Positions 3,126 through 21,400 of a stretch of 64,000 nucleotides of DNA are shown in pieces. A program made the position numbers and the translations under genes. Every line of letters begins with the position of its first letter. Position 1 is the stretch's first letter. Origin of the DNA: Patescibacteria group bacterium. Its GTDB lineage: Bacteria; Patescibacteriota; Minisyncoccia; Phycocordibacterales; Phycocordibacteraceae. The DNA lies in the NCBI GenBank assembly GCA_040384725.1, contig JAZKIS010000009.1:14075-78074 (forward strand). Direction: 5' to 3'. Below the pieces are notes generated by a model. The model saw only the letters and a list, made by a program, of their open reading frames with translations, made no database searches and was not told the origin of the DNA.

Positions 3126-3562
3126 CAGGCAAGTGCTGCCCAGTTGTCTCGAAACGGCTCGTGTTTCGAATTCTGAAGTGGCGGATGCGAGATCTTGAGT
3201 ACAGGAGCCGAGCCATTTTCGGCACGAGCGCTCTGACCCTGTTCCCGCAAAAGCGTCTTCCAGTCTCGAGGCGGGATGATGTAGTAGATCGCGCACTCTC
3301 CCGGCGGGGCGACGATGAGGATGATCGCCTTGATGGCCGAGTCAGAGATGTATCCGGGGTCTCCGGCGATAAACCGTACATAGCCGAATGCATTCCCCGG
3401 AGGCTTGGCGACATGTGTGGCTATTCGAGCCACGCACCGCTTCCCGTTTACGCGAACATGAATCATGTTCCGGATCGCCCGTTCGCCTGGAATCGGCGTA
3501 ACTTCGAATCCCGCAGCCTGCGCGCCCTGCGAGAGAGGAGCAAGAATATCTTGTAGTGCCAT
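3125..3562 (-). CDS. Hypothetical protein (145 aa)
   Basis: ORF with host-like GC wedged between tRNA-Thr and prfB. No family recognised. Confidence 0.4.
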   Translation of the reverse strand: MALQDILAPLSQGAQAAGFEVTPIPGERAIRNMIHVRVNGKRCVARIATHVAKPPGNAFGYVRFIAGDPGYISDSAIKAIILIVAPPGECAIYYIIPPRDWKTLLREQGQSARAENGSAPVLKISHPPLQNSKHEPFRDNWAALA

Positions 3563-3658
3563 AATGGCCTCCTGAATTGAATGAGAGAACTAGTTCCTCC
3601 ACACCCTACAACATAAGGAGCATAAGGCAAATCTTTTCGTATCGTTTACACTCTTCCT

Positions 3659-4525
3659 ATGAATGAGGAGCGCATACAGGAACTCGAGGCTCTCATGGCC
3701 TCTCCTGAGTTCTGGAAGGACCCTGCGGAAGCGCAGAGAAGGATCGCGGAGTATCAGAGCCTTAAGGACGGCGGAACGGGAGACGGGCATGACACGGGCC
3801 CTGCAACGCTCGCAATCCTTGCGGGAGCCGGCGGAGACGATGCCGAGGATTTCGTGCGTATGCTGAGGCGCATGTACGAGGGGTATGCCGGGAAGAGGGG
3901 ATGGAATGTCTGGGAGCTCCATGCGAACGAGAACGATCAGGGAGGATACCGGAACGTGCTGCTTGATATACAGGGGAAAGGAGCCTATGGACGCCTTAAG
4001 AACGAGGCGGGCGTGCACCGCCTGGTGCGTATCTCGCCCTTCAATTCGAACGCTAAGCGCCAGACCTCGTTCGCGCTCGTTGAGGTGCTGCCGAAGCTCG
4101 CGGGGAACGAGGAGATCGTGCTTTCTCCGGACGATCTCGATATCCAGTTCGCGCGCTCAGGAGGCGCAGGCGGACAGAACGTGAACAAGCGGGAGACGGC
4201 AGTGCGTATCGTGCATACTCCTTCGGGGGTATCCGCGCACGTCTCGAGCGAGCGAAGCCAGCTCGCGAACCGCGAGAAGGCCATGGAGCTCGTAAAAGCG
4301 AAGCTATTCCGCATACAGGAGGATGCGCGGCTCGCTGAGGCAAAAGGCCGCTCTATTGCGACTACAACCGCTAACGAATGGGGCAGCCAGATGCGTTCCT
4401 ACGTGCTCCATCCCTATAAATTAGTGAAAGATCACGTAACGGGGGCAGAATCACATGATCCAGACAGTGTCCTCGAAGGAGACCTGGATAGCTTCATAGA
4501 CGCTACCGCTTCGCCTGAGGTATAA
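3659..4525 (+). CDS. prfB: Peptide chain release factor 2 (RF2-type), short form without programmed frameshift
   Basis: GGQ motif (SGGAGGQNVNK) and the SPF tripeptide (ISPFNSN) are present. RHTSF is replaced by RQTSF. Length is 288 aa, with domain 1 reduced to about 40 residues. No CTT TGA C frameshift site lies upstream. Confidence 0.85.
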   Translation: MNEERIQELEALMASPEFWKDPAEAQRRIAEYQSLKDGGTGDGHDTGPATLAILAGAGGDDAEDFVRMLRRMYEGYAGKRGWNVWELHANENDQGGYRNVLLDIQGKGAYGRLKNEAGVHRLVRISPFNSNAKRQTSFALVEVLPKLAGNEEIVLSPDDLDIQFARSGGAGGQNVNKRETAVRIVHTPSGVSAHVSSERSQLANREKAMELVKAKLFRIQEDARLAEAKGRSIATTTANEWGSQMRSYVLHPYKLVKDHVTGAESHDPDSVLEGDLDSFIDATASPEV

Positions 4526-4538
4526 TGGGCTTCGTTAT

Positions 4539-5219
4539 ATGATCTATTTCGACAAGGTAACGAAGATCCATCGCGACGGCACTCCCGGCCTCGAGGATGT
4601 AACCATCGCTATCGCGCCGAAAGAGTTCGTCTCCATCGTCGGACACTCAGGTGCCGGCAAGACCACGCTCTTGAAGATGCTTCTCGTAGAGGACCGTCCT
4701 ACCGAAGGAACGGTCTTCTTTGAGTCCACCGACGTGCATGCGCTTCCGAAGAGCCAGCTCCATCACTACCGAAGGAAGATCGGCATGGTGTTTCAGGACT
4801 TCCGTCTCATCCCGAACAAGACTGCCTACGAGAATATCGCGTTCGCTATGGAAGCGGCGGGACGCGCGCAGGACGAGATCGAGTCTGACGTGCCGCATAT
4901 CCTCGACCTCGTCGATCTCGGGAGCAAGGCGCACCATTTCCCGAGCCAGCTCTCCGGCGGCGAGCAGCAGCGCGTCGCGATCGGCCGCGCCATCATCAAC
5001 CAGCCGGACGTTATCGTTGCGGACGAGCCGACCGGAAACCTTGATCCGGTGAATACCTACGAGATCATGGACATCCTGAAGAAGATCAATGAGCTCGGCA
5101 CGACGGTGCTCATCACGACGCATAACAAGGGCGTGGTGGATGCGATGAGTCGCCGCGTTATCACGATGGATCGCGGACGCGTTATTCGTGACGACATGCA
5201 GGGCCAGTACATTCTCTAA
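4539..5219 (+). CDS. ftsE: Cell division ATP-binding protein FtsE
   Basis: Walker [13 protein letters not shown] signature LSGGEQQRV, Walker [13 protein letters not shown]. Position upstream of ftsX. Confidence 0.9.
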
Positions 5220-5233
5220 TCAATTTTCTTACT

Positions 5234-6157
5234 ATGTGGACGACGATCAAACGAGTGGTTACGGGAGGAGCGAAGAATTTCTTCCGTAGCGGTGCGGTCT
5301 CGTTCGCGACCGTCCTCATCATGACCGTGACGCTCGTGATCGTCGGGTCACTCATATTCCTCTCTGCGATCCTCTCGAACACCCTCGCGTCGCTCCAGGA
5401 CAAGGTGGACGTGAACGTGTACTTCGTTACCGACGCCGATGAGCGCGATATCATCGCGATCCAGGACCGCCTTGAGACTCTTCCTGAGGTATCGAGCGTG
5501 GCCTACACCTCACGCGAGGAACGCCTTGAGGAGTTCCGTACGCGCTACGAGAACGACCAGCTCACGCTCCAGGCGCTCGATGAGCTCGGGAACAACCCGC
5601 TCGGTGCCGCTCTTTCCATAAAGGCGAAGGATCCGTCCCAGTACGCAGGTATCGTCGAGTTCCTTTCGGACGATCCAAGCATCTCTCCCGAGGGCGGCCC
5701 CATCATCGACAGCATCAACTACTTCCAGAATAAGGCGGTTATCGATCGCCTGACGTCAGCCATCAACGCCACCGAGAAGGCAGGGCTCGCGATCGTTATA
5801 TTGTTCGCAGTCGCGTCGACCATCATCGCGCTCGCAACGGTGCGTCTCGCTATCTACACCGCACGTGACGAGATCGCGGTAATGCGTCTCGTGGGAGCCA
5901 ATAACGCGTACATCCGCGGCCCGTTCATCGTCGCCGGTATCATCTCAGGACTTGTCGCGGCAGTTATCGCGCTCGTGCTCTTCTATCCGGCTACCTGGTA
6001 TGCAGGGAATGCGCTTCAGAACTGGCTTGGAGGGTTCAATCTCTTCAGCTACTATCTTTCGAACTTCGCCATGATATTCGGCATCCTTGCCGGAACCGGC
6101 GTTCTCGTGGGCGCGCTCGCGTCGTGGTTAGCAGTACGTCGCTATCTCAGGGTCTAG
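5234..6157 (+). CDS. ftsX: Cell division permease-like protein FtsX
   Basis: Four-TM architecture with a large extracytoplasmic loop. Lies downstream of ftsE. Confidence 0.85.
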   Translation: MWTTIKRVVTGGAKNFFRSGAVSFATVLIMTVTLVIVGSLIFLSAILSNTLASLQDKVDVNVYFVTDADERDIIAIQDRLETLPEVSSVAYTSREERLEEFRTRYENDQLTLQALDELGNNPLGAALSIKAKDPSQYAGIVEFLSDDPSISPEGGPIIDSINYFQNKAVIDRLTSAINATEKAGLAIVILFAVASTIIALATVRLAIYTARDEIAVMRLVGANNAYIRGPFIVAGIISGLVAAVIALVLFYPATWYAGNALQNWLGGFNLFSYYLSNFAMIFGILAGTGVLVGALASWLAVRRYLRV

Positions 6158-7897: not shown

Positions 7898-8278
7898 ATG
7901 CCGACTGATATCGACTCCCACCTCGGCAAACGACTTCGCCGCCTACGCCGTCTTCTCGGCCTCACGCAGCAGCAGCTCGGCACGAAGGTGGGCATTCGCT
8001 TCCAGCAGATTCAGAAATACGAATGCGGCGCGAACCGCATCTCGGCCGCGCGCCTGTGGCAGCTTGCCGAGGCGCTCGAGTCGTCGGTGACCTACTTCTA
8101 CGACGGCCTGAGAGAGGCTCTCGAGGGGAGGGAGGTTGAGGGAGATGGTGAGGAGCACTCCCGCAGGGAGACCCTCGACATGATCGAGGCATACTACCAG
8201 CTCGATGAGGTGCCGCGACGGCGTCTGGTCGAGCTTGCCAGGGCTATGCGTACGGAGCATGGTAAGAAAGCGGCGTAA
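7898..8278 (+). CDS. XRE-family helix-turn-helix transcriptional regulator
   Basis: LRRLRRLLGLTQQQLGTKVGIRFQQIQKYECGANRISAARLWQLAEAL matches the Cro/C1 HTH pattern. Confidence 0.7.
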   Translation: MPTDIDSHLGKRLRRLRRLLGLTQQQLGTKVGIRFQQIQKYECGANRISAARLWQLAEALESSVTYFYDGLREALEGREVEGDGEEHSRRETLDMIEAYYQLDEVPRRRLVELARAMRTEHGKKAA

Positions 8279-8335: not shown

Positions 8336-9394
8336 TTACAGGCTCACGACCTCTTCCCAGGACCTGCCGGCAACGCCGAAGTGCCCGTAGGCAGCGGTCT
8401 CCTGGAAGATGGGGCGCGTGAGGCCGAGACGCTCGCGAATGGCGAGCGGCCGGAAGTCGAAGTTTTTCTGTACGAGCTCTGACAGGTCCTTCCCGTCCTC
8501 GCTGAACGCCTCGACCATGACCGGCTCTACGCGCCCGATGGCATAGGCGACCGAGACGAGCGCTTTCTTTGCGTGTCCGTTCGCGACAAGATTCTTCGCT
8601 ACGAAGCGGCACATGTAGGCGGCAGAGCGATCTACCTTCGTTGCGTCCTTTCCGGAGAACGCGCCGCCGCCGTGCGGCACGAGGCCGCCATACGTGTCTA
8701 CCATGATCTTGCGGCCCGTGAGGCCGGCATCAGCCTCGAAGCCGCCCTGCACGAAGCGCCCGGTCGGATTAACCAGGAGATCAATGCCGTCGAGGTTCCC
8801 GAGCACTGGCAGGAAGAGATGCTCGGTTAGGTCGAGACGTATGGTCTCGAGATCGGCTTCTTCCGCGTGTTGGGTAGAAGTTAGTGCAGTGAGCACGTTC
8901 CCGTTCTTGAGGGTTACCTGGGTCTTCCCGTCCGGGCGCAGGTAGGGGAGCGTACCGTCGCGTCGGAGCGCCTCGAGTCTGCGAGCGAGCGCGTGTGCGA
9001 GCACCACGCCTTTCGGGAGGTATTCCTCGGTCTCGTCCGTCGCGTACCCGTACATGATGCCTTGGTCTCCTGCACCACCGGTATCGACGCCCATAGCGAT
9101 GTCTCCTGACTGTGTAACGACACGCTCGAATACCTCGAGCGGTTCGGTATAGCCGATATCAGCGTATACCTTCCGTGCGATCGCTTCGTAATCGACGTTG
9201 GTCTTGGTTGTAACCTCGCCGCCGATCATGAGCGTGCCGTGGCTGCCGAAGGTCTCTACCGCAACCCGGGAGTTCGGGTCTCCCGCAAGGCAGGCGTCGA
9301 GTATGGCGTCAGAGATCTGGTCGCATACCTTATCCGGATGTCCTGCGGTTACGCTCTCGGTCGTGTAATGGGAAAGAAGATGCAGCATGTACAA
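8336..9394 (-). CDS. metK: S-adenosylmethionine synthetase
   Basis: TTESVTAGHPDKVCDQISDAILDA at the N-terminus, GGGAFSGKD and other MetK signatures. Preceded on the same strand by a SAM-I riboswitch. Confidence 0.95.
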   Translation of the reverse strand: MYMLHLLSHYTTESVTAGHPDKVCDQISDAILDACLAGDPNSRVAVETFGSHGTLMIGGEVTTKTNVDYEAIARKVYADIGYTEPLEVFERVVTQSGDIAMGVDTGGAGDQGIMYGYATDETEEYLPKGVVLAHALARRLEALRRDGTLPYLRPDGKTQVTLKNGNVLTALTSTQHAEEADLETIRLDLTEHLFLPVLGNLDGIDLLVNPTGRFVQGGFEADAGLTGRKIMVDTYGGLVPHGGGAFSGKDATKVDRSAAYMCRFVAKNLVANGHAKKALVSVAYAIGRVEPVMVEAFSEDGKDLSELVQKNFDFRPLAIRERLGLTRPIFQETAAYGHFGVAGRSWEEVVSL

Positions 9395-9410: not shown

Positions 9411-9560
9411 CGTACGAAACGAAAGCATCTCCCAATAAAGGGAGATGGATCGTGTCCGGCATCGTCCCCTTACGGGTCTGGGAGCACCGTTTCCTGTTAG
9501 GGATGGTTGCTGGCGGGTCGTAGGCCCAGGTGCCTCTCCGCGCTCTTGATACTGCGTATT
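9411..9560 (-). promoter_or_regulatory. SAM-I (S-box) riboswitch with intrinsic terminator in the metK leader
   Basis: The minus strand reads UAUCAAGAGCGCGGAGAGGCACCUGGGCCUACGACCCGCCAGCAACC...GGUGCUCCCAGACC...GAUGCC. This matches the SAM-I core (UAUCAAGAG..GGAGGGA..GGCCC..GCAACC..GGUGC). It is followed by the hairpin CAUCUCCC-UUUAUU-GGGAGAUG and a U-rich tract. Confidence 0.7.
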
Positions 9561-9636
9561 CGGTTGTACTCGCTTAGGATAGCACGGGACTGTGTGGGGG
9601 ATATACTTGGTGCATACCCGTCATATACCTTCAATC

Positions 9637-10132: not shown

Positions 10133-10203
10133 TGCGGGATCGTCTAATGGTAGGACAGCGCTCTCTGGAGGCGTTTATCTAGGTTCGAGTCCTAGTCCCG
10201 CAG
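10133..10203 (+). tRNA. tRNA-Gln (anticodon CTG)
   Basis: Manual cloverleaf. U1:A72 acceptor TGCGGGA/TCCCGCA, as in bacterial tRNA-Gln. D-loop AATGGTA, anticodon loop CT-CTG-GA, T-arm CTAGG-TTCGAGT-CCTAG, discriminator G. Confidence 0.85.
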
Positions 10204-10295
10204 CAATCAAGGAGGTGGTTTCGTGCGTCCTAAGAGCGTGGCTTGTGTTCTGTCAGGCAGGTGTGGAATTCCGCTGGAAAAGGTAGAATTTCAAT

Positions 10296-11357
10296 ATGAC
10301 TGGCCGCGAACTTCCCAAACCAAATACTCAATTCTTGAGTTGGTTTTATGGAGAGCATAAGAAAGGTACTTTGGTACTGAATCCTAAATATCAGCGAAAC
10401 CCGATCTGGTCTATAGGACAGAAATGTTTCTTGATAGATAGTCTTATTTCAGGCTCTCCAATACCTCAGGTATTTATAAACATACAGACTACCGGAAAGG
10501 GTGCGAGCAGGGCTACCCAATATGAGATTGTTGATGGTCAGCAGAGGTTGAGAGCTGTACTAGAATTTATGGACGACGAGTACGCCTTAATTCGCACGAC
10601 TGCGAAATCTTATCCTGTCTCTGACATATACGAACCGCAGATCGGGAAGAAGTATTCCGAACTTCCAGACAGTCTGCAAAGTGCAATATGGAACTATTCC
10701 TTAGCTGTGCAGGAATTGCGCGAATGGAACGATGTCGAAATTCGAGCTCTATTCCGTCGTTTAAATTATGTGGTTGAAAAGTTGTCTAACCAGGAGCTCA
10801 GGCACTCTCAATATTTCGGTGAATTTGTAGGAGCAGTTGAAGGACTCTCATCAGCAAAATTCTGGGATGATTTAAATTTCTTCACTCGAAGAGATTCACA
10901 GCGGATGAAAGACGTTGAATACGTCAGTGAGTTATTTGCGATATTGATTGATGGTATTCAGGACCAGCAAAAAACACTTGATCGTTTTTATGCGGACTAT
11001 GACGTTGTATTTCCACATAAAAGTAGGTATATCTCGACCTTCGGCCGAACACTCGAGTCGTTCAGGACAATTCAAGAGTATCTAGAGGAAAGTCGATTCA
11101 AGAATAAGGCGGATTTCTATACTTTGTTTGCTGCAGTCTCTGAGATAAACACTCGTACTAAAGTTGCAACTGACTTGAGTGAGGCAGAATCAGCATTAAG
11201 GCGATTTGAACAGGAGCTGGCAGCTCCTGTTGAACAGTTAAGAGGAAAGGCAAGTCGTTATTACCAGACGGTTATAGAAGGCCCAAATAAGAAAGCTAAG
11301 CGCGAAGAACGTACAGCTATATTTCGGGAAATCTTATCAAGAGCCCTGAAAACTTAA
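10296..11357 (+). CDS. DUF262 (ParB/sulfiredoxin-like) domain protein
   Basis: N-terminal YQRNPIW...LIDSLISGSPIPQVF...YEIVDGQQRLRAV carries the DGQQR signature of DUF262, the N-terminal module of GmrSD-type enzymes. No DUF1524/HNH is found within the same ORF. Confidence 0.75.
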   Translation: MTGRELPKPNTQFLSWFYGEHKKGTLVLNPKYQRNPIWSIGQKCFLIDSLISGSPIPQVFINIQTTGKGASRATQYEIVDGQQRLRAVLEFMDDEYALIRTTAKSYPVSDIYEPQIGKKYSELPDSLQSAIWNYSLAVQELREWNDVEIRALFRRLNYVVEKLSNQELRHSQYFGEFVGAVEGLSSAKFWDDLNFFTRRDSQRMKDVEYVSELFAILIDGIQDQQKTLDRFYADYDVVFPHKSRYISTFGRTLESFRTIQEYLEESRFKNKADFYTLFAAVSEINTRTKVATDLSEAESALRRFEQELAAPVEQLRGKASRYYQTVIEGPNKKAKREERTAIFREILSRALKT

Positions 11358-11363
11358 GCGCAT

Positions 11364-12044
11364 ATGAGTTTGGCTAGCGAAGAGGTACGCAAATTCATCG
11401 ACAGGGTGCAGGTGGCTGGAAACTACCACCGCGAGCTACTATCCGCGGTTCATTTAAAGACCCATCAGGCTTCGCTTGAAACGATGCTCTCGGAACAGTT
11501 TGTATTTAACATGGTGGTGTATTGGGAAGTTTTTGTGAGTGATCTCCTCCTTTCCTATCTTGTCATGTCCCCAGCACAATACCGCAAAACCCTGCGCGAA
11601 AAGATTCAAGCCTCAATAAAAGATCGTTATGGCAGCGCTGCAAGTAGAACTATTAGTTTCAGAAACGAAACGAGACTTTCGTTAGCTCAAGCAGCAGCCC
11701 TAGTTGACCCAAAAGATTTTAATATATCAGTAATTTCAGCTGATAATTTGGCAAAACGAGCAAACGAGATTCTTGCTGCAAAATATGCGAAGTCCTTTAC
11801 TCTTGACCCGGATGACAGACAGTTTGTAGATTTTCTAATTTCTATTAGAAACTATCTTGCGCACAGAAGTCAGGGATCACGAACTGCCTTGAGAAGCGCG
11901 GTTACATCTCTCCGGGGAATTAACTCTGACCTTAGTGGGAACATTACGAATGTGGGGACCTACCTTAAGGCAAAGAATGCTGCTGACGAGACTCGAGCAC
12001 TTGTCATAGCTCGCCGCCTAGAAGAGTTGGCTCTTAAACTCTAA
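11364..12044 (+). CDS. Putative HEPN-domain protein (Rx4-6H motif)
   Basis: 226 aa, mostly helical, with FLISIRNYLAHRS giving R-x4-H near the C-terminal third. It lies 7 bp downstream of the DUF262 gene on the same strand. Confidence 0.5.
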   Translation: MSLASEEVRKFIDRVQVAGNYHRELLSAVHLKTHQASLETMLSEQFVFNMVVYWEVFVSDLLLSYLVMSPAQYRKTLREKIQASIKDRYGSAASRTISFRNETRLSLAQAAALVDPKDFNISVISADNLAKRANEILAAKYAKSFTLDPDDRQFVDFLISIRNYLAHRSQGSRTALRSAVTSLRGINSDLSGNITNVGTYLKAKNAADETRALVIARRLEELALKL

Positions 12045-12071
12045 AGGATAATGTTCTAGACATAGTAATAA

Positions 12072-12893
12072 GTGCGTGGTTTTATAATAGACATGGATAT
12101 TTCTAAGCTTCCTGCACCGGATAGCGAAGAGCTCAGAGCTCTTGTTGAGAATGGGGTGACAAGAGATATATACGCTGCACTCTACGCGAATATGGATAAG
12201 TCGTTATCCATATCGGAAATCCGTTCCCTTCTAGGACTTGTTTCGGGAGAACAAGAGCATCTAAATCGTCGACTCCGTGATCTTTATGGTGCTTTTGAGA
12301 TTGAACGCACAAGACGCGGCAGGGATACGCTTTATAGATTGGTGTCTCGTGCAGAAAATCCTCATCAGACCGCTGGGCGAATTTCAGCAAAAGTCAGAGC
12401 ATGGATTCTCCGAGATCAACGCTGTAAGCAATGCGGGCGCACCCCTTCAGAAGACAAGATAAAGCTGCACGTCGATCATATTATTCCTCAGGAGTGGGGA
12501 GGCACTGATGCGGAAGAGAATCTACAGGCCCTATGTTCAGAGTGTAATGAAGGGAAGAAGAATTTCTATTCAAGTTTTAATGAGTTTGCGGAGAGCATCA
12601 AACAAGCCATAAGTTACGATGAACCCCACAAGCGTATTGGCGAGTTACTGAAAGCTTTTAATGGAAAACCTGTTCCATCTGACTTGCTAGAAGTGGTAGC
12701 AAAAGCAAAGCAATACCAGGACGATTGGCAGAAAAGAATGCGCGAGTTACGCGAACTTGGTTGGGATTATTCGTTTGAAAAGCGCAGGGAAGGATCTAGA
12801 GTAAGAACCTACTACGTCTTGCTGCACTCAGAGTCGTGGCCTGAGGGAAGTATTCGCGCTGAGATTAGGCGACGAGAACTCGAGAAGAAGTAG
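12072..12893 (+). CDS. HNH endonuclease
   Basis: CKQCG...KLHVDHIIPQEWGG...ENLQALCSECN is the canonical HNH/His-Me finger with a Cys4 zinc site. It has a roughly 120-aa N-terminal extension and a 100-aa C-terminal extension. Confidence 0.8.
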   Translation: MRGFIIDMDISKLPAPDSEELRALVENGVTRDIYAALYANMDKSLSISEIRSLLGLVSGEQEHLNRRLRDLYGAFEIERTRRGRDTLYRLVSRAENPHQTAGRISAKVRAWILRDQRCKQCGRTPSEDKIKLHVDHIIPQEWGGTDAEENLQALCSECNEGKKNFYSSFNEFAESIKQAISYDEPHKRIGELLKAFNGKPVPSDLLEVVAKAKQYQDDWQKRMRELRELGWDYSFEKRREGSRVRTYYVLLHSESWPEGSIRAEIRRRELEKK

Positions 12894-13896
12894 CCTTTGG
12901 TTTCTTCGGGGCGGTTGGTTTTCGGTCACCCTGCTCGATTGCCTTTCTGATTGCCTTTCTGATTGCTTTGCCAACAGCTTCAGCGACGGGAGGAGGAAAG
13001 GCATTACCAACCTGGCGATAAGCTGCGGTTTTTTTCCCTGAGAATTTCCACTCCTTTGGGAAGCCTTGAATGATTGCGGCCATCTGAACAGTCAGGCGGG
13101 GGTCACCATCAAAATCTGCTTGGGGAGCAAACTCAACTAAGCCCTTCCCGTCTACTCCAAGCGCGAGCCACGCTTTTTTCGCTCGTGTGGGTCCCAAATC
13201 AGCACCCCCGTGCTTTTTAGATCCTCCAACTAGTGTTGGTCCAACCTTAGAAGCTTTTTTCCGCCATGCATCAACTTTCTTCCAGCCGGCACTTGCCATC
13301 AGTTCATATAAAGCATCACCAACAGTCACAATCTTTTCCGTATTTCCTATGGGCCATTCGAAATGCTCGGCATACGGTTTCTGTAAGGCAACCATAAGTG
13401 TGCGCGGCCGAAGTTGAGGCACTCCAAAATGTGCTGCATGGAATAGCTTCCACGAGACAACATACCCCATGCGCTCCAACTTCTTTGTAATGACATCCCT
13501 ATAATCTTTGAACTTCGGATCTAAGAGACCTCTTACATTTTCAATCAATACTGCCTTGGGCTGAGTTTCTTTAACGAGCTTAAGCATGGCAGGAAAGAGA
13601 TCACGCTCATCAAGTTCTCCAAGTTGCTTTCCAGCTTTTGAGAATGGGGGGCAGGGAACACCTCCCGCAACAAGATCAACACCTTTGTACTGAGTTCCCT
13701 TAAATTTATTTAAATCTGCTTGAATGACATTCCATTTGGGACGATTAAGTCGGAGTGTATTGCAAAATTGCTCTTCAATTTCTACCAGGGCTGCATGCTC
13801 AAACCCAGCGCGCTCGAGACCTATGGCCTGGCCACCTGCGCCTGCGCAGACTTCCAAAGAGGTTAATTTTTTACTTGATGCCTTAGCCATAAACAT
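12865..13896 (-). CDS. DNA (cytosine-5)-methyltransferase
   Basis: Motif I LEVCAGAGG, motif IV GGVPCPPFSKAG (PCP variant of PCQ), motif VI ENVRGLL, motif X QVGNAFPPP. It is convergent with the HNH gene and overlaps it by 29 bp at the 3' ends. Confidence 0.9.
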   Translation of the reverse strand: MFMAKASSKKLTSLEVCAGAGGQAIGLERAGFEHAALVEIEEQFCNTLRLNRPKWNVIQADLNKFKGTQYKGVDLVAGGVPCPPFSKAGKQLGELDERDLFPAMLKLVKETQPKAVLIENVRGLLDPKFKDYRDVITKKLERMGYVVSWKLFHAAHFGVPQLRPRTLMVALQKPYAEHFEWPIGNTEKIVTVGDALYELMASAGWKKVDAWRKKASKVGPTLVGGSKKHGGADLGPTRAKKAWLALGVDGKGLVEFAPQADFDGDPRLTVQMAAIIQGFPKEWKFSGKKTAAYRQVGNAFPPPVAEAVGKAIRKAIRKAIEQGDRKPTAPKKPKATSSRVLVA

Positions 13897-13914
13897 AATT
13901 CTACCAAAATTGAC

Positions 13915-14943
13915 CTAACTACGCTGTACGGGCAAAGCGCCTAGGAAAATCCTTTTTTCTTTCAAAATAAGTTGATTTTTCAAACACGACAAAAGTTCAC
14001 GCTTCTCCAGGAGCGTCCCTTCCCGCAGGACATATTTCGCATAATAACGAATATCAATATCTTCTGTATCAATTTCGTCAGAATTCCCGGAGACGACATT
14101 TTGAAAACGTCTGAATCTTCTCACCTCGTCCATGAGTTTATGTTTGACCCTTATTTCATCAATGTCTGTTTGATCTAGAAGCGCCTCGAATTGAGCAATC
14201 AGCTCTTCTTCTCGTAGGTATCCGCCACAGCAGTCTCGGTCTTTTGACCTACTACATCCGTAGTAAACGTATCTCGCTGTGAGACCTGTCTTTTTAATGT
14301 GCTTGAATTTTTCTTCAGCAGATACCCCTGAACCGCATAGTCCACAAGTAAGTAGTCGAGTGAAGGCGAATTCCTTCGTCTCACTCCGGACTATGCGGTC
14401 CCGCTTGAGTTGAGCTTGTGTCAGATCGAAGAGCTCTCGCGTGATGATTGGCTCATGCAGTCCGTTGTACCAATTGCCGCTCTTGGCTGGGTATTCGAAC
14501 TGTCCGTAGTAGAAGGGCATACCCAGGATCTTGTGGACGTTGCTGAGACTAAGATGTTTATTGCCACGGGGCGTCCTCAAGTTCAAATCAAACCTTAGCC
14601 AGTGGTATACCTTCCGCCCAGTCCATTTCTCGTACGCGACCTTCTCGAACATTTGCTTAATGATATGAGCTCGTTCCGGATCAGTTATGACATGTCCGCG
14701 ACGATCTGCTCGATTCTGACTTAGGTATCCTGTTGGTGCGGGAGAAGGCCATAGCCCCATCTCGCACCGCATGCGTAGACCTCGCTTCACGTTCACGCTC
14801 TTGTTGTCGTTATCGAGCTTCGCCTGAGAACAGAGAATCATGAGGAGGAATTTCTCGCTCGGCGAGTTGCTGAAGCGCTGCCCGTACGTCCGTATCTCAA
14901 CGAGTGCTTTCTGGTCCATAAGATCGACCAGAGTGCCGAGGTC
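13915..14943 (-). pseudogene. Large serine recombinase lacking the N-terminal catalytic (Ser) region
   Basis: The recombinase domain is retained, with a zinc ribbon (CGLCGSGV...YYGCSRSK..C) and a coiled coil. Homology to the resolvase domain starts only at ...DLGTLVDLMDQKALVEIRTYGQ.. (the late E-helix region). Upstream codons are not recombinase-like and hit a stop at 15049..15051. Confidence 0.7.
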
Positions 14944-14944
14944 T

Positions 14945-15250
14945 CCAGCGTTGCTGGATGCGTTGAAGGAATGCCGGGGTTGGGAAGAGGAGTTACAAGG
15001 AAAGACCGTTGCAGGTACGTCAGCCGGTGTCTGCTTCCTGTCTCGGTACTACTATAGCCTCAGCAATCTAGAGGTTCGAGAAGGTCTCGGACTCTTGCCC
15101 GTTAAGGCACTCGTACATTATCGCTCTGATTATAATGCCCCTAATATTGACTGGGACGTGGCATACCAAACGCTTGATGAGTATGGAGAGAATCTCCCGA
15201 TCCTCGCGCTTCCAGAAGGAGGATTCGAGATCATTGAAAAGACGTTCTAG
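14945..15250 (+). pseudogene. C-terminal fragment of a peptidase S51 (dipeptidase E/cyanophycinase-like) gene
   Basis: GKTVAGTSAGV...GLGLLP... matches the S51 nucleophile region (GxSAG) and the downstream part. There is no N-terminal half. Upstream DNA is the antisense of the recombinase. Confidence 0.5.
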
Positions 15251-15276
15251 CGGTCACTCGTCCGTCAGTTCAGTAT

Positions 15277-15311
15277 AAGGAAAGCCGCCCGTATACAGGG
15301 CGGCTTTCCTT
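15277..15311. terminator. Bidirectional terminator hairpin
   Basis: aaggaaagccgccc-gtatacag-gggcggctttcctt, near-perfect 14-bp stem. Confidence 0.5.
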
Positions 15312-15323
15312 GTCGAGAACAAA

Positions 15324-15581
15324 TTAGATAGCTTCGTCCGCTGTTATCTCTGCAGAATTTGTCCACTGCTGAACACGGCCCTTGAACTGGTCCCAGTCTG
15401 CAGCGACCCAATCTTTCGCTGCATCTACCTCGCCACTGAAGTTATCCAGCATGCTGGTACGCTCCAAACGTTCCTCAGCATCCATCTTCTCTATCTTTGC
15501 CGATTCCTCCTTCTTTACGCCCTCCCACCATTGGCGGTAGTCATTGCCTGCATCGTTAAGGTTTGGAGTGTCGTTATCCAT
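15324..15581 (-). CDS. Hypothetical small acidic protein (85 aa)
   Basis: ORF with a downstream terminator. No family recognised. Confidence 0.4.
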   Translation of the reverse strand: MDNDTPNLNDAGNDYRQWWEGVKKEESAKIEKMDAEERLERTSMLDNFSGEVDAAKDWVAADWDQFKGRVQQWTNSAEITADEAI

Positions 15582-15672
15582 ACGTATTGTTGGTTTAAGG
15601 TCTGCTAGATATAACTCGCGCTATGTGAGCTATCCTACGTTCCTCTGTATGAATGCTGGGTGAATCAGAAAT

Positions 15673-15996
15673 CTACCTGGATTTCTTCTTCTCAAGTATT
15701 CCCTGAACTGAAGGACTTATCGGTTTATCCTTGCGGTGGATACACCCGATCCAGCAGCAGGGGCGGCGCACACCTTCCTTGAGTTCGCTGATAAGTCTCT
15801 TTACGTGCTCCTCCCGGGTCTCTGCTTTCTTTACCGATGTAACCCAACAGATCCATTCGTTACGTGCGAGCGGCGTACGCTGTTCCCATGCAAAAAGTGC
15901 CTTCTTGTCTGAGGTAAGAGCCTTTCGTATGTCAGACGGCATTCTGTGCACCGTACCGCCAGGGAGTGCTTTCTCAGTCATACGTAAACTGTACAC
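15673..15996 (-). CDS. YdeI/OmpD-associated (DUF1801-like) family protein
   Basis: ...ETREEHVKRLISELKEGVRRP... resembles the YdeI/OmdA C-terminal signature. An alternative start at MTEKALP (15981) is possible. Confidence 0.45.
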   Translation of the reverse strand: MYSLRMTEKALPGGTVHRMPSDIRKALTSDKKALFAWEQRTPLARNEWICWVTSVKKAETREEHVKRLISELKEGVRRPCCWIGCIHRKDKPISPSVQGILEKKKSR

Positions 15997-16072
15997 CAGT
16001 TATGCAATGGGTGTGCAAAAGAGGCACAGATCTCTGAGACAATAGAGACATTAGCTAATCTTACGCATTTGT

Positions 16073-16456
16073 ATGGATATCACAGTCTTTCTCGCACAGA
16101 TCTGGGGACCGATTATGCTCGCTATCGGACTCGGTATCTTCGTTAGTCGCAGCTACTACCTAAAGCTCTATCGTGATCTGGAAAAGGAGATGCTCGCGGT
16201 CCTTATCTTCGGTATGGCCGGCACTGCGCTCGGTATCATGCAGATAAGCGTGCATAACGCGTGGAATACGCTCCCTCAGATAATCGTGAGCGTGCTCGGT
16301 TGGGGACTCCTGCTAAAGGGAGTCGTATTCATAATCGCGCCACGGTTCGTGGATCGTGGAGGAGATTGGGAAGCTAAGTCCGGATTGCTGCCGCTAGTAG
16401 CGACGGTACTACTCATACTGGGCGCGTACTTGGTCTGGGTCGGATACGCATCCTAG
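16073..16456 (+). CDS. Hypothetical 4-TM membrane protein
   Basis: 127 aa, hydrophobic. Confidence 0.5.
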   Translation: MDITVFLAQIWGPIMLAIGLGIFVSRSYYLKLYRDLEKEMLAVLIFGMAGTALGIMQISVHNAWNTLPQIIVSVLGWGLLLKGVVFIIAPRFVDRGGDWEAKSGLLPLVATVLLILGAYLVWVGYAS

Positions 16457-16520
16457 GTTCATGAAAACGTCACCTACTATCTCTTAGTATGCCGAGCGTA
16501 CAAGCCTAATAATTCCTTAC

Positions 16521-16772
16521 ATGGGTATCATCCTTTGGATTGTGTTCGGTGCGATTGTCGGTTGGCTCGCGTCTCTTATCATGAAGACTAACGGCCAGCA
16601 GAACCTGCTTCTTGATATCATCGTGGGTATTGTCGGTGCGGTGCTCGGCGGCTGGATCATGACTATGCTCGGCCAGGGAGGAGTAGAAGGCTTCAACCTC
16701 TACAGCTTCGTCGTCGCGCTTATCGGCGCAGTCGTGCTGCTCGCTATCGTAAAGATGGTTCGCAGGGGATAG
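16521..16772 (+). CDS. GlsB/YeaQ/YmgE-family stress-response membrane protein
   Basis: MGIILWIVFGAIVGWLASLIM...IIVGIVGAVLGGWI is the typical transglycosylase-associated protein pattern. 83 aa. Confidence 0.8.
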   Translation: MGIILWIVFGAIVGWLASLIMKTNGQQNLLLDIIVGIVGAVLGGWIMTMLGQGGVEGFNLYSFVVALIGAVVLLAIVKMVRRG

Positions 16773-16786
16773 GAAGCCTTACGCAT

Positions 16787-16822
16787 AAGAAGAGCCCGGT
16801 CTTTCTGGACCGGGCTCTTCTT
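16787..16822. terminator. Bidirectional terminator between convergent genes
   Basis: aagaagagcccggtc-tttctg-gaccgggctcttctt, perfect 15-bp stem. Confidence 0.6.
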
Positions 16823-17462
16823 ATTTCCTGCGGGCCTTCTTGTACTGTGTGTAGAAGAGGAATCCCAGAGCTCCCACGACCCCGAGAACGATCGCTACCT
16901 GGAGGAACGACTCTACGGTCGAGAAGTAGGCGAGCATCTCGTCAGCGGCCTCGATTCCCGCATACCCGAGGTAGAGGAAGAAACAGTCACGGAGGATAGA
17001 GCCGATGATCGTGGTGATGATGAACAGGCGGAGCGGGACCTTGAGCGCGCCTGCGCCGAACGACACAACGACGCTCGGAACGAAGGGGAGCGTTCTCAGA
17101 AGCGTAAGGAGGAGATAGTCCTTCCACCCATTCCCGAGACGCGCACCGAAGGATTCAATCTGCGCATGGGTTACCCCGAAGAATTTCGCGAACCTGCCTG
17201 AAAGCAGATCCTCTGCCTTATCGGCAACGACATAGACCACCAGTGCTCCAACGAGCTTGCCTGCTGTTGCTGCGAGGGAGAGCCCGAACAGCATCCAAAG
17301 CGAGTATCCCTGTATCTGCGCCAGGCTTCCCATAACGAGCATAACGGGACCCGAGGGAATAGGAGCGATAACTTCCTCTATTGCCGAAGAGACCGCGGCA
17401 AAAACCGGAAGCGGCATGGCGGTCGCAAGCGAGAGCATGAGCTCCTCCAGGTGATGAAACAT
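16821..17462 (-). CDS. DedA/VTT (SNARE-associated) family membrane protein
   Basis: Multi-TM protein with a conserved DedA-like core (..FGARLG..W..L...LPFVP). Confidence 0.65.
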   Translation of the reverse strand: MFHHLEELMLSLATAMPLPVFAAVSSAIEEVIAPIPSGPVMLVMGSLAQIQGYSLWMLFGLSLAATAGKLVGALVVYVVADKAEDLLSGRFAKFFGVTHAQIESFGARLGNGWKDYLLLTLLRTLPFVPSVVVSFGAGALKVPLRLFIITTIIGSILRDCFFLYLGYAGIEAADEMLAYFSTVESFLQVAIVLGVVGALGFLFYTQYKKARRK

Positions 17463-17591
17463 GCCTAAGGTATACCATGCTCGGTACAGCGTTTTCTTCC
17501 CCTACTATGCCTTCATGAGGCCTTAATGCGCAGCATGTAATTGTACGGGGATGCGGCCGGGCCGCTTATTCCCTTTATACTCCAGAACATT

Positions 17592-18362
17592 ATGATGAAA
17601 TTATTCAGTCTCGCGCTTCTTTTTAGTCTTGTCGTAGTTGCTGGCAGCGCACAGGCCCAAATACTCAATACCAACGGCAGCGCGAGCGTAAACGGCAGTG
17701 CATCAACCGGAAACGATGATACGAGCGTATCAGCGGATGCCGATACAACAGTTGACGCAAACGTCGACGCTGACACAACGAATGATTCCGATAGCACCAC
17801 TGCCACTGAAGGAGATGCTTCAGTATCCGGAAACGCAATGAGTGATTCCGGCATTGGATTCAACATCCTCCGCAGCGAGATGGATGAGAATACCGACTAT
17901 GCGGTAACGAAGGCAGACTCTGTACGCACGTCCGCAAGCCTCGAGTCCTATGCGGCTGCAACGGTCCGCGCTGATGAGCGTCTTGATTCGGTCGAGATGA
18001 ATAGCGGGCAGATGGACATGGAGTATCGCAAGCCCGCGAAGTTCCTTTGGATCTTTCCGGCAAGCCTCAAGGCGCACGTGACGGTTGATCAGGAGGGGGA
18101 GGTTACGGCGCGCTACCCATGGTACTCGTTCCTGTTCTCAACCGATGAGACGCGCTCGGCGCTTGAAGCTGAGATCCGTGACGAGGTCGAAGCCATCGAT
18201 GATTCTGCACAGGTGACAGCGAGCGCAGAGGTCTCAGGAACCGCCTCGACGGGCGTACAGGGAGATCCTGTGATTCGTCGCTGGGCACGTATTATCGAAG
18301 CGGCCTATATTGCAGTCTCCGGTGATGCACGCGTTGATGCGAGTGCACAGGCATCGTCATAA
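17592..18362 (+). CDS. Secreted hypothetical protein with low-complexity Asp/Thr/Ser-rich region
   Basis: Signal peptide MMKLFSLALLFSLVVVAGSAQA. The ORF is open from 17541. Confidence 0.5.
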   Translation: MMKLFSLALLFSLVVVAGSAQAQILNTNGSASVNGSASTGNDDTSVSADADTTVDANVDADTTNDSDSTTATEGDASVSGNAMSDSGIGFNILRSEMDENTDYAVTKADSVRTSASLESYAAATVRADERLDSVEMNSGQMDMEYRKPAKFLWIFPASLKAHVTVDQEGEVTARYPWYSFLFSTDETRSALEAEIRDEVEAIDDSAQVTASAEVSGTASTGVQGDPVIRRWARIIEAAYIAVSGDARVDASAQASS

Positions 18363-18378
18363 GACAGCTATAAGAAAA

Positions 18379-18407
18379 AGGCCCGCAACCATGCGGGCCT
18401 TTTTCTT
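18379..18407. terminator. Bidirectional terminator between convergent secreted-protein gene and RND permease gene
   Basis: aggcccgca-acca-tgcgggcct followed by ttttt. Confidence 0.6.
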
Positions 18408-21400
18408 ATATACGTTCGTACCGCTCCTTCACGGCCTTGCCTGGCCAACGATGGTAGAGAACGGGCACGAGAACGAGCGTGAGGATCATGGACCACGCGA
18501 GTCCGAACATGATAGAGAACGCGAGAGGCCCCCACATGCCGGCGGCTAAGGAAAGCGGCACCATACCGACGACGGTCGTAATGGTCGTAAGTACGATCGG
18601 ACGGAAGCGCGACGAGGATGCCTCGACCACGACGTCGGTGAGGCTCTTGTCGCCATGCTCCTTGCCGATACGCGCGATGGAATCCATGAGGATGATCGCA
18701 TGGTTTATGATCACGCCGGCTAGCGCGATAACGCCGAGCATCGAAGGGAAGGAAAGCGGCGAACCGGTGAGCATGAGCCCGAAGAACACGCCTACTAACG
18801 AAAGCGGGATGATTGAAAGCAGGTAGAGCGAGTGGCGGAACGAGTTGAACTCGAGCACGAGGATCGCGAGCATGAGCGCTGCGCCTGCGAGAAGCGCGAT
18901 ACCCATCTCGGCGAACGACTGGTTCACGTCCTCGCTCTCGCCACCGATCTGTAGCGTGACGCCTGGAGGCAGCGTGACGTCTTCCATGCGCTTCTCGAAG
19001 TCAGAGGCTATCTGGATTGGGTTGCCGCCCTTGGCCGCATCCGCCGTGAGGGTCGCTATACGCGTGCCGTCTTCATGGTGGATAGAGGCGTTTGCGGGCT
19101 CGTACGTAATGGTCGCGATCGTCGAGAGCGGCACCGGTCCGTTCCGGCCCTGTACCGAGAGGCCTCGCACGGCGTCAATGGTGGCATTCGCGGTCTCCGA
19201 GGGGTCGCGATAGCTCGGATTAAGGTCGAGCTTCGTACGCACTTCAATATCGGTGGCGCCCTCGCGGATATCGGTCGCTTTCACGCCGAAGAGTGCGCTG
19301 CGGAGCGTATCGGCAACCGCGAGCGGCGATACGCCGAGCTCGGCAGCGCGTGCTGAGTCGAGACGAACGACGAACTCAGCGCCATCGTCCTTCATGGAGG
19401 TTTCGATGTTCGTGGTGCCAGAGACTTCTGAGAGTACGCGTGCGCCCTGATCGACGGCAGTGCCAAGATCTGCAAGATCATCCCCGACGAAGGTGGCGGA
19501 GATAGCGGCTCCGGTCGGCGGGCCTCCTGCAGGCTCCGAAACGGTAATGCGCGCTGATGCGATGTCGGCGAGTTCCTTGCGAAGGCTCGTGACTATCTCA
19601 GCGCTCGATTCCTCACGGCCTTCCGCGAGATTCACGGTTATGTTGCCGATGTTGCTGCCAGAGGCGCCGGTGCCGCTGAATGCGCTACCAACCCCTACGT
19701 CAGAGACGAACGACTCGATACGGTCGTCGCCATAGAGCATCTCCTCGACCTCGCGCACGGCAAGGTCGGTATCGGTGAGCGCCGAGCCGAGCGGCTTCTC
19801 GATCTCTACATAGATGAAATCCATATCCTCGGCAGGGAAGAACACTACCTTCACGAGTCCGGTGATAGGAAGGAGGAGCGAGAGCACGAAGAGGCCGATC
19901 ATGGTCCACAGGAAGCGATTCTCCTTCTTCCGGTCTCCGAGGATCCGGCGAAGGTACCCCTCGTACCATGCTTTCGCGCGCTCGTTGTACTCTTCCTGGA
20001 TCTTCTCGATGCGCGACGGCTCTTTGCGGATGATGAATATCGCTAAGAGGGGAACGAGGCCGAGGGCGACGAAGATCGACGCGAGGAGCACGAAGATAAC
20101 CGTGAACGGGATCGATGCGATGAACTTGCCGACGATGCCTGAGAGGAAGAAGAGCGGGATGAATACCGCGACGGTAGTGAGCGTTCCGGCGATGAGCGGC
20201 CACGCGTATTCCTTGATCGCGAGGATAGCGGCCTCGCGCTTTCCAGCTGTCTTTGCGAGACGGGTATGGATCGCCTCGACCACCACGATGCCTGAGTCGA
20301 CGAGGATACCGATCGCGAGGATGAGAGAGAAGAGCGATATGAAATTGATGGTGTTCCCGGACGCAGCGAGGCCGATGAAGGCGATCAGGAACGAGAGAGG
20401 GATCGACGCGGCAGCGATAAGGGATTCGCGCCATCCGAGGGTGAGGAGCAGAAGAATCATAACGAGCACGATCGTCTCGAGGCCGACGCGCGAGAGCTCG
20501 ACGAGGTCATGCTCGATGTCCTCCGCAGCGTCGTACGTGATGACGGTCTTAGTGCCTGAGAGCGATCCTGCCTCGAGTTCCTTGAGCGTCTCTTTCACGT
20601 CGCTTCCGGTCTCGAGAATGTTGCCGCCGCGGCTTTTGAATATTGAAAGGGTAAGCGCGGGGGTGGATGGCTCGCTTTCGACAGAAACGCGCGAGAACGT
20701 CGACGCGTCTGCTAACCCGTCCACGACGTCCGCGACGTCACCGATACGTATCGAGCTGCCGCCAGGGCCTGCAAGGGCGATGGCCCGTACCTGATCGGTC
20801 TCCGTGAGGCCTGCCTCAAGGCGAACCGCGTAGCGGATGCCGTCTACCGTGATGCTGCCGGCAGGAGACGCGACGCCCGACGCGCGGAGCGCGTTCGTAA
20901 CGTCGCTCATGGAAAGCCCGTACTGACGGAGCTTCGCCTGCTCGACGATTACCTGCACCTGACGCTCACGGACACCAGAAAGGGACACGGAGGAAACGCC
21001 GCGAACGCGCTCGAGCTCATCCTTCACCTCTTCGCCGAGTGCCGTGAGTTCTGCGGGAGCTAGCTCGCCCGCGATTGAGAGGATAAGGATCGGCTGATCC
21101 GCGAAGTTGATATCGCTCACGATCGGATCGTTCGCTTCCTCAGGAAGCTCAGGACGGACGGTATCTACCTCGTCCTTAAGAAGCTGTATCGACTTGTCGA
21201 GGTCGGCATTCGCCGTGAACTCGACGGTGACGGACGAGACGCCGTCCCCTGAGCTCGAGGTAACCTTCGAGACGTTCTCGATGCCAATAACGCGGTCCTC
21301 GATCTTGTCCGTGATGAGCGACTCGACGTCTTCAGCGGAAGCGCCCGGAAGCACGGTAGTAACGATACCCATCGGGATCTGGACCTCAGGAGCCGATTCC

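Follow-up and report, generated by a model that had tools for sequence, protein, structure and literature searches.

A low-GC defence islet beside tRNA-Gln in a Patescibacteria bacterium carries two gene modules and the stump of a large serine recombinase

The locus considered here lies in a stretch of 64,000 nt (the window) from a Patescibacteria group bacterium (assembly GCA_040384725.1, contig JAZKIS010000009.1, positions 14,075 to 78,074 of the forward strand). Coordinates are counted from the first nucleotide of the window, and related contigs are given by our labels (L001 and so on). Directly beside a gene for tRNA-Gln(CUG) (10133..10204, plus strand; ARAGORN, Rfam tRNA score of 58 bits), which forms the left border, lies a segment of about 4.75 kb of low guanine-plus-cytosine (GC) content, 10,205-14,958, starting 1-3 nt past the tRNA. 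A spacer of 91 nt at the left junction (10205..10295), where no att-like repeat was detected, is followed by genes for a DUF262/ParB-like NTPase, a HEPN-like protein, an HNH endonuclease and a Dcm-type C5-cytosine DNA methyltransferase (MTase). The first three are on the plus strand, with gaps of 6 nt (DUF262-HEPN) and 48 nt (HEPN-HNH), and the MTase gene converges on them. Last comes the remnant of a large serine recombinase (LSR), and the right junction is placed at about 14,958, the end of the recombinase homology, which corrects an earlier figure of 14,945.

The sharp drop in composition after tRNA-Gln, reported in the initial annotation, was confirmed by a sliding recalculation in which 95 windows of equal length from the rest of the 64 kb served as background. 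The GC content of 10205-14945 is 0.457 versus 0.574±0.018 in the background (minimum 0.546; z = -6.6); the background is, accordingly, about 57% and not the stated 60% or so. The tetranucleotide distance to the background is 0.039 versus 0.0125±0.002 (maximum 0.0185; z = +13.7). The drop to a foreign composition is real and far beyond chance. Along the profile, GC amounts to 0.55-0.62 before the segment, 0.41-0.47 from about 10.2 to about 14.5 kb, and 0.48-0.53 up to about 16.5 kb. GC at third codon positions (GC3) is 0.39-0.42 in the four cargo genes versus 0.74-0.77 in the genes for MetK, PyrG, DUF1761 and RND; the recombinase stump, with 0.53, stands above the cargo.

The DUF262 gene (10296..11357, plus strand) encodes a protein of 353 aa whose only Pfam match is GmrSD_N (8.7e-20), so that a DUF1524 nuclease domain is absent. 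The motifs QRxxxW (YQRNPIW), DGxQR (VDGQQR) and FxxxN (FRRLN) are intact. Among PADLOC models, NsnA (1.1e-35, profile 59-383/385) scores above PD-T4-2_A (PDLC04027, 3.2e-24), to which residues 21-341 align over profile positions 47-355/363; a sequence search of the PDB returned spurious repeat-protein matches only. The HEPN-like protein of 226 aa (11364..12044, plus strand), encoded 6 nt after the end of the DUF262 gene, belongs to a divergent RiboL-PSP-HEPN branch. The initial annotation had counted four defence-type genes, which direct Pfam matches uphold for DUF262, HNH and the MTase; the HEPN protein has no such match, and its identity is supported by an RNxxxH (Rx4H) motif invariant across the family, an all-alpha HEPN-like fold, and transitive matches, the Pfam family HEPN_RiboL-PSP (PF18735) being reached by 21/61 distant family members (best 8e-8).

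A word-indexed search yielded 20 homologues of the HEPN-like protein, and a profile search of 1.84 billion cluster representatives yielded 459 clusters of the family, 97 of them below 1e-30. Among the best 150 of the 459, most are full-length (about 225-250 aa), and the shorter ones are fragments. In all four independent loci (L082/83, L084, L085-87 and L088), the HEPN homologue lies directly 3′ of a GmrSD_N/DUF262 gene of about 350 codons, with a gap of 3-5 nt, and the DUF262 partners are 63-71% identical to the window protein. No HNH or MTase gene adjoins the pair in any of the four; its surroundings there include Gabija-like, SIR2-NB-ARC, toxin-antitoxin and restriction-modification (R-M) genes, and each time it lies 4-9 GC points under its neighbourhood. 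More distant relatives of the HEPN protein (26-30% identity), found by tblastn against plasmids, either lack a partner or have different ones, with Shedu or AAA-ATPase/helicase genes as neighbours.

The PD-T4-2 system consists of a DUF262 protein and a PF18735 HEPN protein, without DUF1524 (PMC10952713). It protects E. coli from T4 (PMC9519451), while its mechanism is unsolved (PMC10952713, PMC9519451, PMC12065111). RiboL-PSP-HEPN domains were earlier noted "in operon with ParB" by Anantharaman et al. (PMC3710099). Judged by its gene architecture, the window pair may be called PD-T4-2-like, its B component being divergent. By analogy with GmrSD, SspE, BrxU and HEPN effectors, the DUF262/ParB-type NTPase with its NsnA-like C-terminal region would sense phage DNA, possibly modified DNA, and its NTP hydrolysis would be coupled to the activation of the neighbouring RiboL-PSP-type HEPN protein. 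The activated RNase would then cleave RNA, with growth arrest or abortive infection as the outcome.

The second pair begins with an endonuclease of 266 aa (12093..12893, plus strand, start ATG 12093; Pfam HNH, PF01844, 1.2e-11). In its AlphaFold2 model, the HNH core is flanked by two winged helices (wH-HNH-wH). A sequence search of the PDB gave matches through the HNH core only, and no solved or characterised counterpart of the whole architecture was found in the structure and sequence comparisons made. PADLOC matches are REase_II (7.7e-6) and mREase_IV (2e-5). The MTase of 341 aa (12865..13890, minus strand, start probably 13890) matches the full length of the Pfam DNA_methylase profile (1.6e-68) and bears all the catalytic motifs, AGAGG, GVPCPPFS, ENV, QLRPR and GNAFPPPV, read as motifs I, IV (PC), VI (ENV), VIII (QxRxR) and X (GN). 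Its PADLOC matches are DruM2 (4.7e-148) and MTase_II (4.7e-111), and M.HaeIII and M.HhaI are its PDB matches. The catalytic motifs are thus intact in both proteins, and the two convergent genes overlap at their 3′ ends by 29 nt.

Homologues of the HNH protein number about 780. The HNH gene adjoins an orthologous 5-methylcytosine (m5C) MTase gene in all six other loci, and none of these has a DUF262 or HEPN gene with the pair. The genes are convergent in L089, L091/L092, L100-103 and L104, with a 3′ overlap of 29-32 nt except in L089, where there is none; in L090 they are divergent, and the MTase is full-length by tblastn. Identity of the MTase to the window copy is 73-78% in convergent loci and 58-78% over L089, L090, L091, L100 and L104. 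On the viral contig L093, an HNH protein 40% identical to that of the window stands beside a different m5C MTase (24-25% identity) plus Vsr, which is also adjacent to the pair in L089 and L090. The HNH protein and MTase probably constitute a type II R-M pair, and the cognate reading is favoured because they are co-inherited in two orientations and have diverged together. The Dcm-type MTase would mark host cytosines at C5, and the wH-HNH-wH endonuclease would cut incoming DNA at unmarked sites; as an addiction module, such a pair would also stabilise the islet. A palindrome-avoidance analysis of the window gave no signal for an R-M target.

In front of the HNH gene, window positions 12055-12095 contain a TAGACA...TATAAT-like pair with a non-canonical spacer of 20 nt, ending 6 nt before the ATG, and motifs of a similar kind (TAGACA/GTGG) precede HNH in L091, L100 and L104. 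On sequence grounds, the pair of boxes may be a promoter or regulatory site of the module's own. An alignment of the HNH-upstream regions was too divergent to place the module border, and promoter and terminator scans performed no better than shuffles.

The recombinase remnant (13915..14958, minus strand) retains the Pfam domains Recombinase and Zn_ribbon_recom only, together with a C-terminal coiled coil; read from ATG 14919, its open reading frame (ORF) comprises 334 aa (13915-14919). The loss of the catalytic N-terminus, already noticed in the initial annotation, was corroborated by orthologues. The Resolvase domain (PF00239) is absent, the alignment beginning at residue 104 of an intact 443-aa LSR from L089 and running to residue 438 at 60% identity; the first ~103 residues, including the catalytic Ser, are gone. 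Identity to the intact LSR of L100 is 62%, and NCBIfam alignments cover CcrB 118-343/542 and XisF 98-335/465. The frame upstream of the remnant is not resolvase-like and contains stops, and no LSR N-terminus, Vsr or ParB-MTase was found elsewhere in the 64 kb.

The MTase of L089 and of L100-102 has an intact LSR as its direct neighbour (443 or 439 aa; Resolvase, Recombinase and Zn ribbon), placed and oriented like the stump of the window; in L091, an LSR of 451 aa lies within 5 kb of the MTase. Three loci also carry, near the LSR or MTase, a gene of ~117-134 codons together with a ParB_N-N6/N4 DNA-methylase gene (27-36% identity; L089 9924-11623, L100 13738-15418, L091 8569-10946), which possibly belongs to the same family of mobile elements. 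The surroundings in L089 look phage-like (LysM, Amidase_2, S24 repressor). Among viral contigs, the LSR stump has no match and the HNH protein one distant match (L093), so a phage origin is not demonstrated.

On the other side of the junction lies the 3′ remnant of a peptidase S51-like gene (14959..15250, plus strand). It keeps the GTSAG nucleophile motif and lacks about 95-100 N-terminal residues; the C-terminal ~100 residues of the ORF 14840-15250 (plus strand) match positions 115-193/206 of the Peptidase_S51 profile (E = 0.011). Homologues are rare (10 matches), and those labelled P0142-P0149 carry PF03575, P0146 running ~100 aa further N-terminally; a PDB sequence search with the fragment found nothing. 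Homology to S51, on the plus strand, sets in roughly where that to the LSR ends. The S51 and OmdA genes are neighbours in the window and also on contig L105 from a metagenome-assembled genome (MAG; CAYWQN010000026), which suggests that this stretch is host-side DNA. The simplest reading of the sequence would be that a single deletion joined the LSR stump to what is left of the S51 gene, its 3′ end. A role of the S51 gene as insertion target is not supported, the fragment being read as host-side flank cut by the same deletion as the recombinase.

Seven relatives have an orthologous tRNA-Gln. One, L002, is the sole syntenic relative from a MetK scan of genome contigs (82% aa identity of MetK); the other six are metagenome contigs (L094-L099) found with an exact 46-nt tRNA probe, and this 3′ portion of the tRNA is identical in all seven. 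Upstream, the window and the relatives have genes in common, variously MetK, DUF1761 and PyrG (90% nucleotide identity over DUF1761 in L099). Homology to the window stops at 10204-10207 (blastn, L094-L099), and the DNA 3′ of the tRNA is mutually unrelated across the seven: in L002, unrelated genes follow, and the 0.2-2 kb available downstream of the tRNA in L094-L099 contain none of the island genes. Three relatives are low in GC there as well (0.43-0.47). These observations point to a hypervariable spot, clade-wide, at the 3′ flank of tRNA-Gln, and because each of the seven relatives carries different DNA there, the island is strain- or lineage-specific. Together with the foreign composition, its absence from this position bears out the horizontal origin put forward in the initial annotation. 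Among what the relatives carry downstream are ORFs resembling methyltransferases, a zincin-like protein and a large surface protein with PG_binding_1. The contig end of an independent assembly, Logan contig L001 (SRR26324625_638257), which is 100% identical to the window over 11,181 nt (10177-21357), falls within tRNA-Gln; this may be a branch of the assembly graph and could reflect population heterogeneity at the junction.

Two further proposals concerning the insertion site did not hold. The tRNA-Gln gene had been suggested as the attachment site, yet a search for an attR-like repeat, tolerating 2-3 mismatches, found the tRNA 3′ end nowhere else in the 64 kb, and repeat finding over 9.9-18.5 kb was also empty; nor does the island encode a tyrosine integrase. 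Within the fetched loci, no tRNA lies near the LSR of related elements, and therefore nothing links this LSR to tRNA targets. The position beside tRNA-Gln is better explained by local hypervariability than by tRNA-directed integration. None of the seven relatives, each having different downstream DNA, showed an empty site in which an intact S51 gene comes directly after tRNA-Gln, and the search for S51 homologues brought up no tRNA-Gln/S51 junction either.

Taken together, the locus is probably the surviving end of a foreign element that was mobilised by an LSR, carried two self-contained defence modules and was grounded by a deletion. The HNH-MTase pair would normally travel beside an intact LSR of 439-443 aa, with variable defence cargo upstream of HNH. 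As to the order of events, we infer that a single deletion then took the first ~103 codons of the LSR, the remainder of the element beyond them (the ParB-MTase gene and others, in an original extent that is likewise conjectural) and the 5′ portion of S51, so that the cargo would have been locked in place. Several points weigh against this account. The nearest relatives are only ~80% identical (MetK, aa) and lack the window's downstream genes, and therefore the absence is established at a synteny breakpoint and not at a clean empty site. The stump is open throughout its ~1,040 nt, free of internal stops and frameshifts, which means either that the deletion is recent or that the DNA-binding part is kept for some function. 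In L089, L091 and L100, related genes lie on either side of the LSR, and neither att sites nor element ends could be placed. The HEPN-like protein matches HEPN_RiboL-PSP (0.014) and Apea (0.018) below the Pfam threshold, and the PADLOC models of PD-T4-2_B match 0/19 close members of its family. Finally, published wH-HNH fusions of similar size are N6-methyladenine (m6A)-dependent type IV enzymes (PMC11037411), which makes the type II assignment of the endonuclease less certain.

The genes upstream of HNH differ from locus to locus: Vsr in L089, an MTase and a HATPase-Ymh protein in L091, small ORFs in L104, a type III-like R-M system with SMC/AAA_21, S49 and DUF2726 in L100, and the DUF262-HEPN pair in the window. 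Such differences suggest that cargo varies at a position beside a conserved HNH-MTase(-LSR) core, although with five to six loci it is a lead and not a result. The L091 stretch (3207-5955) holds a second m5C methylase and a HATPase_c_3/Hypoth_Ymh protein. Ymh is a domain of the HEPN type, and the two genes may fill the same slot as a further HEPN module linked to a methylase. A bolder and quite tentative suggestion is that the triad of wH-HNH-wH endonuclease, m5C MTase and LSR, seen in Patescibacteria MAGs and other metagenomic contigs, represents an undescribed family of small recombinase-borne R-M cassettes with a swappable defence slot upstream of HNH. If true, the window would record the capture of a new module, after which the carrier was grounded by the loss of the LSR catalytic domain.

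Other explanations bear on the modules and on the insertion. The HNH protein might be a modification-dependent, for example m6A-dependent, type IV enzyme of the wH-HNH kind that happens to stand beside an orphan or Vsr-associated Dcm-type methylase. Its modelled wH-HNH-wH fold agrees with this: type IV wH-HNH fusions of 224-283 aa are reported to depend on Dam methylation, and wH nucleases are found together with C5 MTases without conflict (PMC11037411); EcoKMcrA (6ghc) is among its sequence and fold matches, homologues are named "McrA" in JGI annotations, and the weak mREase_IV match stands beside that to REase_II. However, the "McrA" labels are generic COG names, and a stand-alone type IV enzyme requires no methylase, whereas here an orthologous m5C MTase adjoins HNH in 6/6 loci and in two orientations. 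The pairing of a diverged HNH protein with a diverged MTase in L093 is, moreover, the pattern of a co-evolving R-M system, and we regard the type IV alternative as unlikely, if by no means negligible. Considerably less probable is that all four genes form one system, with DUF262 controlling two effectors, HEPN and HNH, and the methylase providing self-protection; a split GmrSD-like operon, or one of the MAE_28990 type ("ParB nuclease + HEPN + methylase"), would be an example. The tight packing of the three plus-strand genes with the MTase convergent to them, the similar GC3 of all four, and the precedent of GmrSD, itself DUF262 plus a His-Me nuclease, speak for a single operon. It is contradicted by the separate lives of the two pairs, DUF262-HEPN lacking an adjoining HNH or MTase gene in 4/4 other loci and HNH-MTase lacking DUF262 or HEPN in 6/6, with Vsr, a type III-like R-M system or MTase plus HATPase-Ymh upstream instead; the HNH domain, besides, is PF01844 and not DUF1524. 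The multi-nuclease cargo of four genes proposed in the initial annotation thus resolves into two independently travelling two-gene modules of described kinds.

As to the insertion, it may be asked whether it was targeted to tRNA-Gln, by a tyrosine-integrase-type or hotspot process, with the LSR remnant being debris carried along from an earlier or nested element. The start of the island 1-3 nt from the tRNA 3′ end fits such targeting, as does the different DNA in 7/7 relatives, some of it low in GC, as would be expected of a recurrent hotspot; the GC3 of the stump also departs from that of the cargo (0.53 vs 0.39-0.42). Yet the island has no tyrosine integrase, the tRNA 3′ end is not directly repeated in the window, and the conservation of the HNH-MTase-LSR block elsewhere ties the LSR to the cargo as more than unrelated debris, which makes tRNA targeting rather improbable. 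That the segment is ancestral core content whose composition results from local mutational or selective bias is effectively refuted. All that can be said for it is that no clean empty site was recovered, while the segment is an extreme compositional outlier, is absent in 7/7 relatives and contains a recombinase remnant, and homologues of its genes, 50-78% identical, occur in unrelated contexts in other MAGs, some of them assigned to different lineages (Saccharimonadales, Verrucomicrobiae, Peribacteraceae).

The genes flanking the island encode RF2, FtsEX, PyrG and MetK, the MetK protein being closest to that of Patescibacteria/Parcubacteria MAGs; the island proteins are on record at NCBI from a MAG entered as "Patescibacteria group bacterium" (locus tags V4682_). 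A SAM (S-adenosylmethionine) riboswitch (RF00162, 9456-9555, minus strand; 45.9 bits, the gathering score being 44.4) directly precedes metK (8336-9394, minus strand) and accounts for a non-coding block at ~9450-9570 conserved with relatives. Between pyrG and metK, an ORF of 126 aa (7898-8278, plus strand) resembles by sequence an XRE-type helix-turn-helix protein. To the right, the zone 14959-16500 is compositionally unlike both island and core. Beyond the S51 remnant, the intermediate-GC flank (15251..16500; GC 0.48-0.53, GC3 0.53-0.63) holds an acidic ORF of 85 aa (15324-15581, minus strand), an OmdA/YdeI-family gene (15673-15996, minus strand; Pfam OmdA 6e-16) and a small membrane protein of 127 aa; it is probably accessory host DNA outside the low-GC island.

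On the whole, the locus is a real but fairly ordinary defence islet, both modules being of known kinds. It is a clean, well-delimited example that overturns no current ideas and brings no new principle. Its interest lies mainly in the host, the newly delimited HEPN family and the recurrent HNH-methylase-LSR vehicle. Bacteria of the candidate phyla radiation (CPR) have tiny genomes and a little-studied anti-phage repertoire, and here two compact defence modules are kept on immobile foreign DNA. Through the DUF262-HEPN pair, PD-T4-2, a type with experimental validation but an unsolved mechanism, would reach a lineage very far removed, and a family of about 460 HEPN clusters with an invariant RNxxxH could aid mechanistic work. 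The recurrent HNH-methylase-recombinase block, for its part, suggests a specific vehicle that spreads R-M and other defence genes.

Among known systems, the first module comes closest to PD-T4-2, reportedly described by Vassallo et al. in 2022 from E. coli ECOR65. Both have two genes, for a DUF262/ParB-like protein without DUF1524 and a HEPN protein, of the RiboL-PSP type (PF18735) in PD-T4-2 and a divergent, putative member of that type in the window; both pairs are found in defence islands, and the window DUF262 protein matches PD-T4-2_A nearly over its full length (3.2e-24). Unlike PD-T4-2, the window HEPN protein reaches PF18735 only through distant family members and its family does not match PD-T4-2_B (0/19), NsnA is the better-scoring model for the DUF262 protein, the host belongs to the CPR, and a role of the pair in phage defence is putative. 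The best PADLOC match to NsnA (1.1e-35, 59-383/385) likens the DUF262 protein to Menshen (NsnABC) and implies an architecture of ParB-DUF262 plus ParBDB, which is that of NsnA; Menshen also needs NsnB and NsnC (PMC12065111). It was rejected as an identification, the window having neither the NsnB ABC-ATPase/DUF3696 nor the NsnC inPIN-nuclease: the next genes are HEPN-like and HNH, and no ATPase domain was found in the island genes. With GmrSD, BrxU and SspE, the DUF262 protein shares the ParB-like NTPase domain, intact QRxxxW, DGxQR and FxxxN, and presumably the logic of a sensor NTPase that controls a nuclease. These too were set aside, as no DUF1524 His-Me nuclease is fused or paired with it and the effector is a separate RNase-type HEPN protein; the window HNH protein (PF01844), for its part, travels with the methylase and not with DUF262.

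The second module resembles type II R-M systems with HNH (ββα-Me) nucleases, for example of the Hpy99I type, in that HNH stands beside a Dcm-type m5C MTase, often with Vsr; it differs in the wH-HNH-wH architecture of the endonuclease, and the cognate status of the pair is putative. The m6A-dependent wH-HNH type IV enzymes (SruGXI/HhiV4I group, PMC11037411) are similarly small (266 aa in the window) and combine winged helix and HNH, a likeness of size and domains, whereas in the window protein HNH lies between two winged helices, and an m5C methylase is its constant partner. Druantia type II was rejected in spite of the strong DruM2 score, which reflects similarity of the methylase family only, because DruE, DruF and DruG are absent and the neighbours are HNH and the LSR stump. 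A classical tRNA-integrated island was likewise discarded, given the missing distal repeat of the tRNA 3′ end in the 64 kb and the lack of a tyrosine integrase. More similar are LSR elements such as SCCmec with CcrAB, XisF and the LSR integrases of phages, which have the same Recombinase and Zn-ribbon domains in an LSR adjoining accessory cargo; the window copy differs from them in the deletion of its catalytic resolvase domain, and the linkage of the LSR to HNH/m5C and ParB-MTase genes is specific to this family.

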